A stretch of DNA of 64,000 bases, from assembly GCF_009931435.1 (NCBI RefSeq), contig NZ_CP043414.1. One strand, written 5' to 3'. A program made the position numbers. Positions 15,001-21,000 of this stretch are shown one piece after another (the first letter of the stretch is position 1; each line of letters starts with the position of its first letter). Source of the stretch: Escherichia coli (lineage in GTDB: Bacteria; Pseudomonadota; Gammaproteobacteria; Enterobacterales; Enterobacteriaceae).

Positions 15001-18000
15001 ATGATTTTGTAGCGATGAGGTTGATGAGATGATTAACTGGCCCTGGTGTTTTTTTTCTCAGAGCAAGGCTCTTTTCAGAAAAAGCGTGATGATTGGTTCT
15101 GGTGTTTTGATTCAGATGAGGTTTACGTTATCGATGGTTAATCGCTTTTATGGTGCGTAGTGAAACGTAACATTTTCAGGATGAGAAAATCGATTCTGAT
15201 GTTAGTGGTTTTTGTTCTTGGGGTGGGGTTATCTGTAAACAGGTTTTAAACGCGCTATTCGGCTCTGTGATTGAGTTGTGTGGTTAAGCTATAGGTTTTG
15301 GTGTTGTTGTTGATTCACAGCGCCAGAAATCGTTCTGATTGCGTTTTTGATGTTTTGTTTGCACGTTCTGTTGATCCGTTTCCCTTCTGACTTTTCTCGT
15401 CGTCCATGCCGTTTTTAAATTCATTTGCTGTTGTTGTGTTTTTTTACCATCTTTTCGTTTGTAGGGGATTCCATTTTTATCCGGAGTAGGTTGTGTTGCT
15501 CAATGGTGGGAGTTCGTAAAGTTTTACCGCGGTGATTAATGATGTGAAGTCAATCCAAATCAATGGAGATCTCTCATCATGAATCAACCAATACACAATG
15601 CTTACTGGTTATCCCGTTTTGAAAGTATTCTCAACAGTGCCCTGGCGCAACACCGTGCCGTCTCGTTAATCCGGGTGGATTTACGTTTCCCTGAGTATAT
15701 GCCTGCCACCATTATGGATACCGATTTAGATTCAGCGGTGATTTCTCGTTTTTTCGAATCCCTGAAAGCAAAAATTCAGGCTTACCAGCGACATAAACGA
15801 CGTGCCAACAAGCGTGTGCATGCAACCACTCTGCGTTATTTCTGGTGCCGGGAGTTCGGCAAGGAAAAAGGCAGGAAACATTATCACGTGATATTACTGC
15901 TCAACAAAGATACCTGGTGCTCGCCAGGGGATTTCACCGTTCCTTCTTCGCTGGCGACGCTGATCCAACTGGCATGGTGCAGTGCTCTGCATCTTGAGCC
16001 CTGGCAGGGTAATGGACTGGTTCATTTTTCCAGGCGGACGCCTTTCCGTAAACCGACATCATCCGATGCTCGCCCTTCTTCCGATGACACGCCTTTACCT
16101 GGTGGATGTTCTGATACCCGGAAGGATTCTGACAAAAAGTCTGGTGGATCCGCTGTGCTCTGGATCAAGCGTGGTGATGTAGAAGCGATGCAGAAAGCCA
16201 TGGAGAGAGCCCGTTATCTCGTGAAGTATGAGACGAAGCAGCATGACGGTTCTGGTCAACGTAATTATGGTTGCAGTCGTGGAGCGGGGCGTCTACTGGA
16301 TGGCAGGTGAACCCTGTAAAACGGCATCCGGTGCCTGAGCGTATGCCACGGTAGGGCGTCAGCCAACGCCCTTACCTCGTATTCTGATCACTCATTCTGA
16401 AGTCATGCAACGGTATTTTTATCTGCTTCCGCTCTTGGAAACACTCCGTCGGTAAAAACTTACCGCCTTGATTAATGATGTGAACCGAAGTCAACGGAGG
16501 TCATTCACCTTAAACCCACCTCAGGAATTTTACACCTGTCAGGTCTCCTGACTGTCCTGGCATACGACATCTGCCATCCCCGGTTCCACGGTTATTACAT
16601 CAACAACCTCTGTACACGACGCCTTCAGTTTCACAATACGCTCGTCTTTCGCTGGCGGGGATGCGTCGTGCGTTTCTATATGGAGCATATCTTATGAATG
16701 GTATCCCTCATTTCGACTATAGCCTGGCGCCCTTCTGGCCGTCTTATCAGAACAAAATCATCGGTGTTCTCAACCGTGCGCTGCGTGAACAGTCCTGCTC
16801 CCGGGTACGGCGGATCCTGCTTCGTCTGCCATGTGAATATGACACTACCTTCAGTAGCAGAAAGACCTGGTTTGGTATGGACTTTATCGAAACTGTCAGT
16901 GCGCTGATGAATGCAAACCCCGGACGTGATCTCTGCTGGCTCCTGACTCGTCATCCGGAAAAGCCGGAATACCACGTGGTGCTGTGCGTCAGACAGGAGT
17001 ATTTCGACGGCCCCGAACTGGATCGGTTGATACTGGATGCCTGGAGCAACGTACTGGGCTTCGCGTCACCGGGTGAAGCGGCACCGTACCAGAAGCAGAT
17101 AACACGGGATGTGGTGCTGGACAGTCGTTCACCGGACTGCGAAGACATCCTCAAAGAGCTGATATGGGCATTCAGTGATTTCGCCCGCGATCGTCGTGGT
17201 GTGCGCGATCCGGAAGCCCGTTACCTCGTCGGTAATCCCTGGTATCCCGTAGCAGGCCAGCTCTGAAAGCACAGTTCAGCAGATTCACCCGCATTTGCCC
17301 AACCTTCATAAATCTCACAAAGGACATTCTGACCATGTTGACCACAACAAGCCACGACAGCGTATTGCTGCGTGCTGACGATCCCCTGATCGACATGAAC
17401 TACATCACCAGTTTCACCGGTATGACCGATAAATGGTTTTACAAGCTGATCAGTGAAGGCCATTTTCCTAAACCCATCAAACTGGGTCGCAGCAGCCGCT
17501 GGTACAAAAGCGAAGTGGAGCAGTGGATGCAGCAGCGAATCGAGGAGTCACGAGGAGCTGCTGCATGAAACGTGTTGTAATACCGGTACGCTGGCGATGT
17601 GCAAAATGCCGGCGCTGGTATTGTGGAAATCAGCCCTGTCCCTGGTGCTGGCGACACTCTCGTTCATCTTTCTGCTGATACCCTCCTGTCAGTAGCGGGT
17701 TGTAGCTCTTCCCTGACCGATTTGTCATTCCACTCTTATTGTTTATAACGGGTATTGAGCCGGTACTGGCGTGTTTTCCTGCATGTTTGCACCGGTTCAG
17801 TAAAATTCAACAGGATTCGAAAAGGAACATTTCGTGCAAATAACCGAAGCATTACTTTCAGAGCCAGGGGAAATCCGGCGTTTTGTTCAGCAGGCGGTGG
17901 ATCACTGGCCGCATCTGTTGGCATTTCACTTCACGCTCCATTCGGCTGAAGAAAACATCAACGGGCAACGGGTTCAGACATTCTGTACTTCCTTTTACCG

Positions 18001-21000
18001 GCAGGTACACGAACGTATTGCTGAACGTAATCACACGGCCAGTCCATCATCGCCGTTGGTATTACGCTGGTTGCGGGAACAACATGGAAAAGCAACAATA
18101 CGATGCCTGTTGCTGCTCAGCCAGACGAGCATTTGCCATCCGCGAGCCAGTGTCACAGTTGATGAACAATGTTCGCAAGTGGTGGATTTACTGCAACATA
18201 GCTGGCAGGTGATAAGTGCTGGCGGACAATGCCGGGTGGAAAGGTGTTTTCGGGTTGCCCGGGGTGATACATCCGGTCAGTATGTTGCGTTAAAAACAGT
18301 CGCATTGTCTCTGGGGTTACCGGTTGTGACCGCCATTACCCATCGTCCGGTACAGCGCTGTACATTGATTACAGCTCAGTGAATCAGCGCTTTCTGGCTT
18401 TTCGTCGGTCATTCAGCACCATTAGCCGGGCCTCTGCCTCTTTCTGTTCCTGTAGTGTCACTTCCCCGCACGGCAGCCCCTTCAGATCGTAACGGGCGCC
18501 ATCTGCCATTAACGCACATGAATAGTGCGGAGACTGCACATAAGACGCCACTGCCGCGTGTAATGTACCAGCGCCAAACGCCAGTTCTCTGATGGCGATA
18601 TCCTGTATCAGGTCGTCAGGTATCTCAACTTTAAGCGGTTGGGGTTTTTCCCGGTTGAATAACTCAGGCCAGAGTTCCACAAGACGATTAATACGCTTAC
18701 GGTTTTTACGCTGGCGTTTTGTCATATGCCGCCACGGTGTTTTTTCAGCAGAGCAGGGCTCTGTTTATCGTTCAACTGTGGTATCCGTTCCCTGGCCTTC
18801 ACGTTGTGTGCAGTGTTCGTTTTATCCTGCAGCGGCGTTGCCGGTGATTTACTGAAAATGCCCTGTGGTTTACGGTTAATGGTCAGCGTTACCATCAGTA
18901 TTGTTACCTCATGCTGTCAATGGAAGTAGTACTCCATCCAGAGCCTTGGCGACCCCGGGGCTGAAAACGAAACAATAACCCGCGCACAGTGCGAGGAGCC
19001 CGGGCGTGAAGCAATCAGCAGGTAATATTAATGGCAAGACCAGTAGGTTCTTTAAACAAACGAACAATATCAGCAAATACGACAACTCCCGGAGAGGTAA
19101 AAAGTTTTTCACTTGAGCACTTCTTAAAAAAATGGAGACGAACAAAAATGGGGCGACATACCTGGAAAGTATTGCTACCAGATGATGCTAAAAAGCAGAA
19201 ATAGTGTTCCAGGCCTGAAAGGGATGAGAATCAGTATCTGTGTGTATTTATAACATCTTCTTGAAGAGGCTGGAGATTGTTAGTCCATTAGTATAATCGA
19301 TATTCGTGTTCCTGCGAATATGCAGGCTACACCAGATATATGATTGCTACCGAATTTCATCAGTTTGATGAAATTACGCATCATACTGCGGGTTTTTCTC
19401 ATTAACATTAACGAAAGTGAATGGACTCAGACAAGTAGTGACCGGCGCAATTTCGCTAAGTATCAAATACAAAGAACGTTCTCTTACTTTCTGCGATGGC
19501 CTTTCCTTCGGAAAGGAAGTGACGATTAAGTACCGAAAAATGTGATACACATATTATTTTTATGGTGAATCACCTGATAGGATTTGCCATAAATGAATGA
19601 AAAGCTGAGTGTTAATAAATGAGTAAGAAGAAAATTCCTTTTGAAAATGAAGAGTTCATTACTTACCGGGCATTACTTCTGAGTATTGACTTTGTTAAAA
19701 AACTGGTTATAGAAATGTCTGATGAAGATTTAAATAAGGTTAAGGAAAACTTTGACATAGCTATTCAGCAACGTAATGAGCGAAAGGAAAATATGAAAGC
19801 TATCAAATCACTCATGGATGAACATGGTATATCTCTGGAAGATTTTTATTGTGAATTTGGCAAAAAATCACAGGCAGGCAGAAAAAGTGTGTCAGGAAGG
19901 CATAAATACGAGTATGACGATAACGGTAAAAGAATGTACTGGAATGGACAAGGACGTCGGCCTAAGGCCATAGCAGAGGCTATAAAAGCCGGAGGTTCTC
20001 TTGATGATTTTCTTATATCTCAGGAAGTATCATCTGGTCCTGATTATGAATAACAGCAATATATATTTTGATCTGTATTAATATCAAGAAATATATAGTA
20101 AACACTTCTCCGGAGTTGATATATTATCGGCAGGGAATGAAAATGCCTGACTTCATGCTAATATATGGCAATAAAGATAAATGAGTTATACTGTAGAGTT
20201 ATGAAATAACGATAGTGATAAGAGCCAGTCAGCGAGACTGATTGTTTTATCTGTACTGGCAGCAGGCAGTTTACCATGGCTTACTGCTTCAGCTTCTGAA
20301 TCTGTGTTGATGATATTTATCTGTTTATAAGGCAAGGCTTGTCTCTGTGAGTTGGTAATCTTTATCCCGGGATAGCTTTTCTCTGTATTTTTAGTATAGC
20401 CAGTAATCGATTACTCCTGTATGCGCAAAAATATAGCAACTCATCCATGGTAAACATGTCAGCTTTTACCTACATATAGATAAATTCATATTTCACGATA
20501 TACGACCCAATTTTATTAACACGAGCTGTTACCCATACACCTGTCATCCCCTGTTTATGGTGACTGCGCGGGAACTCTTTATTTGTACAAAGTTGTATCC
20601 ATCTGGAAGTGTTTTGATCTTTCAACCAGAGTCCCGCTTCACAATGTCCATACTTTCCTCTTGATGGTCCCGGAAAAACAACATCATATTCAGATTCATA
20701 GCTAATAACCTTATCCGGAAAAAGATAAACACAGACATCGTAACAGTTCAGACTCAGTATAAATCCAAGACAAAATCCCCCCGTGAATGCATTTAATAAA
20801 TACTTTAATGTTCTGTTAAAGGTGCGGATATAAAATGCATAAATAAAAGAAAGAGAACCGGTGGTTATACCGGTGCAAAAATATGTTGTCCATTCAGGTA
20901 CCGTATTTTGTAAAACAGTATAATGAGATATGGCGGATGCCCACAACATATACCAGCACAAACCACCTGCAATAAGATATGTTATTGCTGTGGAAAACCA

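Follow-up and report, generated by a model that had tools for sequence, protein, structure and literature searches.

A conserved accessory block of YagK/YfjJ-type, AlpA-type, and frameshifted FinO-domain genes in a mosaic Escherichia coli island

We analyzed a 64,000-nucleotide (nt) stretch of DNA from Escherichia coli (NCBI RefSeq assembly GCF_009931435.1, contig NZ_CP043414.1), referred to here as the window, and focused on a block within it that comprises a YagK/YfjJ-type gene (ORF1; ORF, open reading frame), its candidate paralogues ORF2 and ORF4, an alpA-type gene, and a convergent gene of the ProQ/FinO family that is frameshifted (table 1). An earlier reading of the window made without database searches (the sequence-only reading) had described five ORFs here, all of which are present; it had alpA follow the three Gp2-like genes, whereas this gene actually lies between ORF2 and ORF4. 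The order Gp2-type gene, ORF2, alpA, ORF4, and convergent FinO gene is kept across diverged strains, and window positions 15400–18900 are 100% identical to positions 57421–60921 of FORC064 (NZ_CP022664.1), as they are to several other complete E. coli chromosomes. Of 5426 complete E. coli genomes, 2855 match the block at least in part and 242 contain 80% or more of it, and the spacer between alpA and ORF4 alone is found at a coverage of at least 80% in 2296 complete genomes. RefSeq already annotates the genes of the block, and a table of proteins encoded in pheU, pheV, and selC insertions includes both a "ProQ/FINO family protein" and an "Inovirus Gp2 family protein" (PMC6174562). The block is thus not unusual, being widespread, annotated, and assembled from parts that are all of known kinds.

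Table 1. Genes and sequence elements of the block, in window positions (aa, amino acids)
Feature	Position	Strand	Description
33-nt box, copy 1	15516-15548	+	GTAAAGTTTTACCGCGGTGATTAATGATGTGAA; ends 31 nt before the ORF1 start codon
ORF1	15579-16310	+	243 aa; YagK/YfjJ ("inovirus Gp2 family") protein
33-nt box, copy 2	16452-16484	+	210 nt upstream of the ORF2 start; palindrome CGGTAA-N4-TTACCG
ORF2	16694-17266	+	190 aa; RefSeq start (longest ORF from 16661); very divergent YagK/YfjJ paralogue
alpA-type gene	17335-17568	+	77 aa; excisionase/transcriptional activator family
Small Cys-rich ORF	17565-17678	+	37 aa; MKRVVIPVRWRCAKCRRWYCGNQPCPWCWRHSRSSFC; CxxC-x4-C-x4-CxxC; no annotation in RefSeq FORC064
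Inverted repeat/hairpin	17760-17795	+	CCGGTaCTGGCGTG...GCACCGG; upstream of ORF4, in the alpA-ORF4 spacer (17569-17833)
ORF4	17834-18382	+	182 aa; GTG start; PF27752 / "UCP030791 family putative phage-derived protein"
ProQ/FinO-family gene	18384-18895	-	"frameshifted" pseudogene in RefSeq; frame lost at about 18722-18760
FinO C-terminal ORF	18384-18725	-	113 aa; FinO domain
FinO N-terminal ORF	18722-18895	-	57 aa

ORF1 is the clear member of the YagK/YfjJ family in the block. It matches PF11726 (YagK_YfjJ_C) over profile positions 2–170 of 170 with an e value of 4.5e-37 (128 bits against a cut-off of 25.8), it also matches PF23343 (REP_ORF2-G2P) with an e value of 4.7e-9, and PHROG replication-initiation families match it as well. 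In tblastn searches with the window proteins against the CP4-57, CP4-6, and CP4-44 elements of K-12, ORF1 alone found matches, namely YfjJ and YagK, to which it is approximately 30% identical and relative to which it contains a 36-aa low-complexity insert. Residues H101, Y102, H103, and Y213, the last in a YxxK context, are invariant across the alignment of ORF1 with the two K-12 proteins. Because the H-hydrophobic-H motif and the conserved tyrosine are both retained, ORF1 could still be capable of cutting DNA, and a ratio of nonsynonymous to synonymous substitution rates (dN/dS) between strains of approximately 0.22 indicates that it is under purifying selection.

The sequence-only reading had counted two clear Gp2-type proteins, and for ORF2 this clarity is not borne out. 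ORF2 has no family match in Pfam, NCBIfam, or PHROG even at permissive thresholds, PF11726 does not match it with e values of up to 10, its BLASTP match to ORF1 reaches an e value of only 0.029, and a word-indexed search found homologues in Escherichia only. The homology comes instead from a bridging relative and from profile–profile comparison. An exhaustive HMMER search of 1.84 billion representative sequences returned one full-length 50%-identity cluster and two distant full-length relatives (P0192 and P0197); P0192 matches the ORF2 profile with an e value of 1.6e-18 and PF11726 with an e value of 1.4e-10 (41.8 bits), which is above the curated cut-off. The ORF2 orthologue at locus L008 reaches 11.7 bits against PF11726 (e value of 0.25, below the cut-off), and a profile of ORF2 and its relatives aligns in hhalign to the ORF1/YfjJ/YagK profile over 150 columns with a probability of 97.7% and an e value of 1.6e-12. 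The dN/dS of ORF2 between strains is 0.14–0.20, and ORF2 is therefore a maintained gene; the profile comparisons show it to be a genuine YagK/YfjJ paralogue, if an extremely divergent one. In the joint alignment, the H-Y-H motif reads E-Y-H in ORF2 and C-Y-H or F-Y-H in its distant relatives, and the tyrosine column holds aspartate throughout this clade. Judging by these motifs ORF2 is probably a non-catalytic derivative that binds DNA rather than cuts it.

ORF4 had been proposed as a possible third Gp2-type protein, and it stays at that level. Neither the local Pfam, NCBIfam, and PHROG models match ORF4, even at permissive thresholds, nor does the local PF11726 model match ORF4 or 14 of its homologues. 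The homologues in E. coli, E. albertii, and Salmonella bear the recent Pfam family PF27752 (PF27752.1), and they are variously named "UCP030791 family putative phage-derived protein," "inovirus Gp2 family protein," and "YagK/YfjJ domain-containing protein." A scan of genome contigs with the ORF4 alignment, in which the peptide patterns were overly strict, returned only two loci and no added diversity. Direct links to the Gp2-type proteins are weak: BLASTP aligns ORF4 to ORF1 with an e value of 0.002, and two hhalign comparisons gave e values of 0.0063 at a probability of 6% and 0.078 at a probability of 0.7%. ORF4 could, on this evidence, belong to an unrelated family (PF27752/UCP030791) that merely shares the common ferredoxin-like beta-alpha-beta-beta-alpha-beta fold, in which case the locus would contain only two Gp2-type genes; we regard this as a tenable second choice. 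Against it, BLASTP and both hhalign runs place ORF4 on ORF1 in the same register (LRWLRE/LRYFWCRE, IRCLLLLSQ/HYHVILLLNK, and LLQHSW/LIQLAW), that is, a W-x-R-E segment, the H-Y-H strand, and then an A/S-W helix, and the RefSeq labels that tie some homologues to inovirus Gp2 or YagK/YfjJ point the same way. The AlphaFold2 model of ORF4 (predicted local distance difference test score, pLDDT, of 60; predicted template-modeling score, pTM, of 0.63) has the element order H-E-H-E-E-H-E-H, and nearly the same order is seen in the ORF2 model (pLDDT of 52); both models are of low to modest confidence, so that matches of fold are only supportive. With Foldseek the ORF4 model found no match among viral models (BFVD) at an e value of 0.001 or less, but its top 50 BFVD targets include "Inovirus Gp2," a microvirus replication initiator, and parvovirus NS1, and six of these 50 recur in the list for ORF2, which served as a positive control for the comparison; named replication initiators occur in both lists. 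ORF4 has neither histidine nor tyrosine at the motif positions, and its dN/dS between strains is 0.37–0.47. We lean, with modest confidence, toward an ancestry of ORF4 shared with Gp2/YfjJ, and ORF4 is possibly a fully degenerate third copy of the Gp2-like fold.

The identification of AlpA holds: the product of the alpA-type gene matches PF05930 (Phage_AlpA) with an e value of 2e-10 (40.8 bits against a cut-off of 21) as well as PHROG excisionase/regulator families, and its dN/dS between strains is 0–0.07. It is 39–50% identical to AlpA proteins of satellite-like elements. The ATG of a 37-aa cysteine-rich ORF overlaps the alpA stop codon (ATGA), from which translational coupling of the two can be predicted. 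This small ORF has no significant Pfam match and is kept in nine diverged loci. It is very likely coding because variable sites among these loci number 3, 5, and 14 at codon positions 1, 2, and 3, respectively, and thus fall mostly at the third position; it would be an addition to the annotation of the identical RefSeq locus. In three other loci (L026–L028), a 26-nt deletion joins the same start codon to a hydrophobic frame, and RefSeq annotates proteins of 41–52 aa there. A type I toxin, encoded by a hydrophobic peptide frame in the spacer between alpA and ORF4, was also considered as a candidate and rejected, as the third-codon-position pattern favors the cysteine-rich frame in the nine loci that have it.

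Upstream of both ORF1 and ORF2 lies a copy of a 33-nt box, the two copies being 85% identical as a direct repeat (D4). The 25-nt core of the box occurs twice in the window and in none of 100 shuffled sequences. The box is kept in strain C7, and the copy upstream of ORF2 is kept in L008; it is absent from CP4-57 and CP4-6 of K-12. Because the coding sequences of ORF1 and ORF2 are almost unalignable, the box is more readily seen as a regulatory site common to both genes than as the leftover of a duplication, and it may serve as a shared operator, promoter, or nick site.

The last gene of the block had been read as a convergent ProQ/FinO protein. The domain assignment stands up to profile search, and what is encoded in the window is a fragment of a frameshifted gene. 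The FinO-domain ORF, which converges with ORF4 across a single nt, matches PF04352 (ProQ/FINO) over profile positions 4–107 of 109 with an e value of 1.9e-19 (70.1 bits against a cut-off of 27), and its sequence matches in the PDB include the N-terminal domain of ProQ (5nb9, 2.7e-12) and FinO (1dvo, 2.9e-11), with ProQ, FinO, RocC, Lpp1663, and NMB1681 as structurally characterized relatives. In strain C7 the allele is intact, with 158 aa and 85.5 bits against PF04352; the window contains 35 extra nt in the linker, so that the gene is split. Full-length family members have 158–185 aa and the window gene has no intact full-length frame, from which we predict that a full-length FinO protein is not producible from the window. 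The gene is likewise frameshifted or split at four other loci (L008, L019, L020, and L028), intact at three (L004, L023, and L024), and absent from two (L021 and L022), a distribution that points to recurrent decay.

Alternatively, the gene might be alive in reduced form, with the 113-aa ORF expressed from an internal methionine as a minimal FinO-domain protein that chaperones RNA. Minimal ProQ homologues occur in Legionella and Neisseria. The ORF is intact and spans the whole Pfam domain, its start is a methionine kept in frame in intact alleles, and within a family with many members in E. coli, Shigella, Salmonella, and Citrobacter, forms of 113–114 aa are frequent and annotated as proteins (P0257 is recorded on 408 contigs and P0254 has 244 member sequences). 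The dN/dS of the domain between strains, 0.33–0.44, is below 1, so that some residual function is possible. Set against this are the frameshifted status of the gene in RefSeq, the loss from the 113-aa ORF of the conserved N-terminal MxxLTINRKP segment and of the basic linker, and the lack of an evident Shine–Dalgarno-like sequence before the internal ATG. Moreover, the fragment deviates at eight of the 65 columns with a conservation of 90% or more among 85 full-length members (K29Q, G34E, R56H, R67H, Y69S, R70C, G75D, and Q84L), whereas the members themselves have a median of two deviations and a 95th percentile of 8.8. R56H, R67H, Y69S, and R70C fall at columns conserved in 96–98% of full-length members, and other truncated copies share such changes. 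By a hand count on the phmmer alignment to 5nb9, R56 and R67 correspond to R58 and R69 of ProQ. Mutation of another arginine of ProQ, R80, abolishes RNA binding (PMC8594473); its equivalent is retained in the fragment, and R80 is the only one of the three arginines for which we could confirm a residue-level role in the literature. On balance we consider expression of a functional minimal protein quite improbable and prefer to regard the gene in the window as decayed.

Relatives of this FinO protein with 57–68% identity were traced to their contigs in four cases, and all four lie inside compact integrative elements. These elements share the order integrase, hypothetical gene, AlpA, AntA/Bro-N, small ORFs, DUF4222, primase/helicase (of the DUF927, D5_N/Pox_D5, or AAA_25 type), usually a single-stranded DNA-binding protein (SSB), FinO, and then PerC or small ORFs. 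On contigs of E. coli, Citrobacter, and Salmonella (L011–L018), the FinO relative directly follows the primase/helicase, with SSB between them in most loci. In one of these loci (L015), genes for capsid, protease, portal, HNH, and terminase proteins follow; in our own classification from gene order, such a layout would be that of a capsid-forming phage-inducible chromosomal island (PICI). For P0316, the commonest FinO relative, at least 1000 contigs are on record, and among sequenced phages the clade was found in Sodalis phage phiSG1 only. The FinO clade is thus a regular neighbor of replication genes in elements with a gene order like that of PICIs and their capsid-forming variants (cf-PICIs) and is also present in CP4-like islands. 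This distribution fits a regulation and replication module whose AlpA-type and FinO-type parts are shared with satellite-like elements and whose replication part would be swappable.

In FORC064 the segment identical to the block sits inside a large island that has setC on one side and tRNA-Sec on the other. To the left, a block of minus-strand genes heads leftward to setC and encodes a yfjP-type GTPase, DUF932, antirestriction, RadC/JAB, and DUF987 proteins, and CbtA/YeeU toxin–antitoxin genes; the orientation of the block studied here is opposite to that of this yfjP-to-toxin/antitoxin block. To the right are an H-NS paralogue, a dGTPase-like pseudogene, IS3, nucleotide-metabolism genes, and a type I restriction–modification system. 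ARAGORN found no tRNA in the window, and the only trace of an integrase is one 31-aa fragment near 38.1 kb; in the otherwise identical FORC064 locus, an integrase and tRNA-Sec lie approximately 35 kb away from the block. The arrangement typical of CP4-57, in which a P4-type integrase beside a tRNA or transfer-messenger RNA attachment site is followed by alpA, is accordingly not seen in the window.

Several further features of the window surround the block. A 376-aa hypothetical protein without a family match is encoded at 12927–14057 on the plus strand. Between it and the block is an AT-rich stretch of approximately 1.5 kb (14058–15578, 35% GC) without long ORFs, which contains short tandem/direct repeats with a 13-nt unit (TTTTACTAAGTAT) at 14607–14672. 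Just past the FinO pseudogene, the island H-NS paralogue (19619–20053, plus strand) has 144 aa and both N- and C-terminal H-NS domains. It is followed by an HD-domain dGTPase-like ORF (21140–22393, minus strand) and, at approximately 23850–37800 according to FORC064, by genes for thymidylate synthase, a MazG-like protein, a DEAD/DEAH helicase, a type I restriction–modification M/S pair, and an AAA ATPase; the dGTPase-like ORF and the genes that follow look like a cluster of nucleotide-metabolism or possibly anti-phage cargo. The last 25 kb of the window is a Tn21/Tn3/mer resistance region, where FORC064 has Tn10 tet(B) instead. There, positions of approximately 41650–64000, with a GC content of up to 0.68, contain Tn3-family transposase genes, merA, IS1326, and TnsB/Mu-type transposase genes, and their best chromosomal match has 100% identity across 89% of the query.

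Taking these results together, we consider it likely that the locus belongs to E. coli islands of the P4-integrase type as a conserved block of accessory genes, lying here, within a mosaic island, between setC and the selC side of the chromosome, and that it is the remnant of a regulation and replication module of an integrative, satellite-like element. In such an element AlpA, as its family suggests, would turn on genes of the element or its excision; ORF1, again by analogy with its family, would nick DNA or initiate replication of the excised circle; and ORF2, perhaps together with ORF4, would act as a non-catalytic partner or regulator. In strains that have it, the intact FinO-type protein would aid an antisense or structured RNA of the element in the way that FinO acts on FinP/traJ of F plasmids. 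The description of the locus as the regulatory and possibly replicative core of a CP4-like element is thus plausible by analogy; it needs to be qualified in that the block is reversed, lacks an adjoining intact integrase, and is a remnant in a mosaic island.

Conversely, the Gp2-type genes may not encode replication proteins at all but DNA-binding regulators or relics irrelevant to mobility, the block being kept as a regulatory cassette of AlpA and co-regulated genes or by hitch-hiking. Two of the three Gp2-type copies are without catalytic residues, the palindromic box upstream of ORF1 and ORF2 resembles an operator, repeat scans found no origin-like iterons, and degraded islands without an adjacent integrase also harbor the block, all of which speaks for this alternative. 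We nevertheless think it unlikely, given that ORF1, YfjJ, and YagK all retain H-Y-H and the tyrosine in its YxxK context, that ORF1 is under purifying selection, and that phage replication-initiation profiles match it.

The remnant-module explanation, which we prefer, has to be set against several observations that weigh against it, to which the low hhalign probabilities of ORF4, the absence of an intact integrase or tRNA next to the block in the window, and the intact 113-aa FinO-domain ORF with its dN/dS below 1 also belong. The literature yielded no functional study of any YagK/YfjJ protein and none on the function of ORF4 or of the island FinO clade. No partner RNA for the FinO protein emerged from Rfam, signal scans, or folding: an Rfam scan of 12–22 kb gave only two sub-threshold chance matches, and promoter and terminator predictions were at or below the expectation from shuffled sequences. 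The hairpin upstream of ORF4 is kept in 11 diverged loci, mostly by invariant or one-sided changes, and has a covariation term of only -1.8. The spacer in which it lies folds with a z score of -3.1 on the plus strand and -0.1 on the minus strand and partly overlaps the small coding ORF, and neither the ORF2 leader nor the region upstream of the FinO gene folds better than shuffled sequences. A terminator-like site at 18726–18740 was rejected: it relies on an A-run that arose in the frameshift region, and on our reading of the alignment the C7 allele, whose frame is intact, does not have this site.

Taken alone, the locus amounts to the routine annotation of a common accessory block in which the most eye-catching gene is a pseudogene. 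The YfjJ/YagK family is represented here by a copy with its motifs intact next to paralogues that have lost theirs but are still under selection, which suggests an initiator-plus-regulator arrangement. Of the leads, we rate highest the FinO clade found next to replication genes in satellite-like elements, on which no study turned up. Plasmid FinO-domain proteins govern replication and transfer via antisense RNAs, and intact alleles of the clade are therefore candidates for a search for RNA ligands. A bolder proposal would be that this clade (158–185 aa, MxxLTINRKP) is an unrecognized standard component of satellites and CP4-like islands that sits beside whichever replication module an element has, be it a primase/helicase with SSB or Gp2/YfjJ-type proteins, and controls replication or induction through an antisense or structured RNA of the element, as FinO does with FinP, with the Gp2 trio consisting of one active initiator and two catalytically dead regulatory paralogues; we put this forward as speculation that is improbable in its entirety.

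Among known systems, CP4-57 (intA-yfjH-alpA-yfjI-yfjJ...yfjP...toxin/antitoxin) resembles the window in combining an AlpA-type regulator with a YagK/YfjJ protein and in having the yfjP-to-toxin/antitoxin block that the window island also contains. It differs in that ORF2, ORF4, and the FinO-domain gene have no tblastn match in it, nor in CP4-6 or CP4-44, which for the ProQ/FinO gene in CP4-57 agrees with the sequence-only reading. The window block in turn is without a homologue of yfjI (DUF3987), its AlpA is only 25% identical to that of CP4-57 (e value of 3e-6), and it is reversed relative to the yfjP-to-toxin/antitoxin block. The rolling-circle initiators of filamentous and other small single-stranded DNA phages share with ORF1 the PF23343 and PHROG replication-initiation matches and an H-hydrophobic-H motif with a tyrosine downstream; ORF1 is much shorter than the gpII-type phage proteins, and ORF2 and ORF4 are without the catalytic residues. 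FinO of the F-like plasmids, which acts on FinP-traJ, has the PF04352 domain, an identity of approximately 35% over this domain, and a location on a mobile element in common with the window gene, and FinO-type proteins of mobile elements work with cis-encoded antisense RNAs, FinO/FinP being an example (review, PMC9977716). The window clade is nevertheless distinct, residing in chromosomal islands and satellite-like elements and having its own N-terminus (M-x-x-LTINRKP), and the copy in the window is frameshifted. Finally, the AlpA-type gene and the FinO gene both have relatives, with identities of 39–50% and 62–68%, respectively, in the PICIs and cf-PICIs of Enterobacteriaceae as we classify these by gene order. 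The FinO gene is co-directional in these elements but convergent in the window block, which is without packaging genes, and a primase/helicase and SSB take the place there that Gp2/YfjJ-type genes occupy in the window block.

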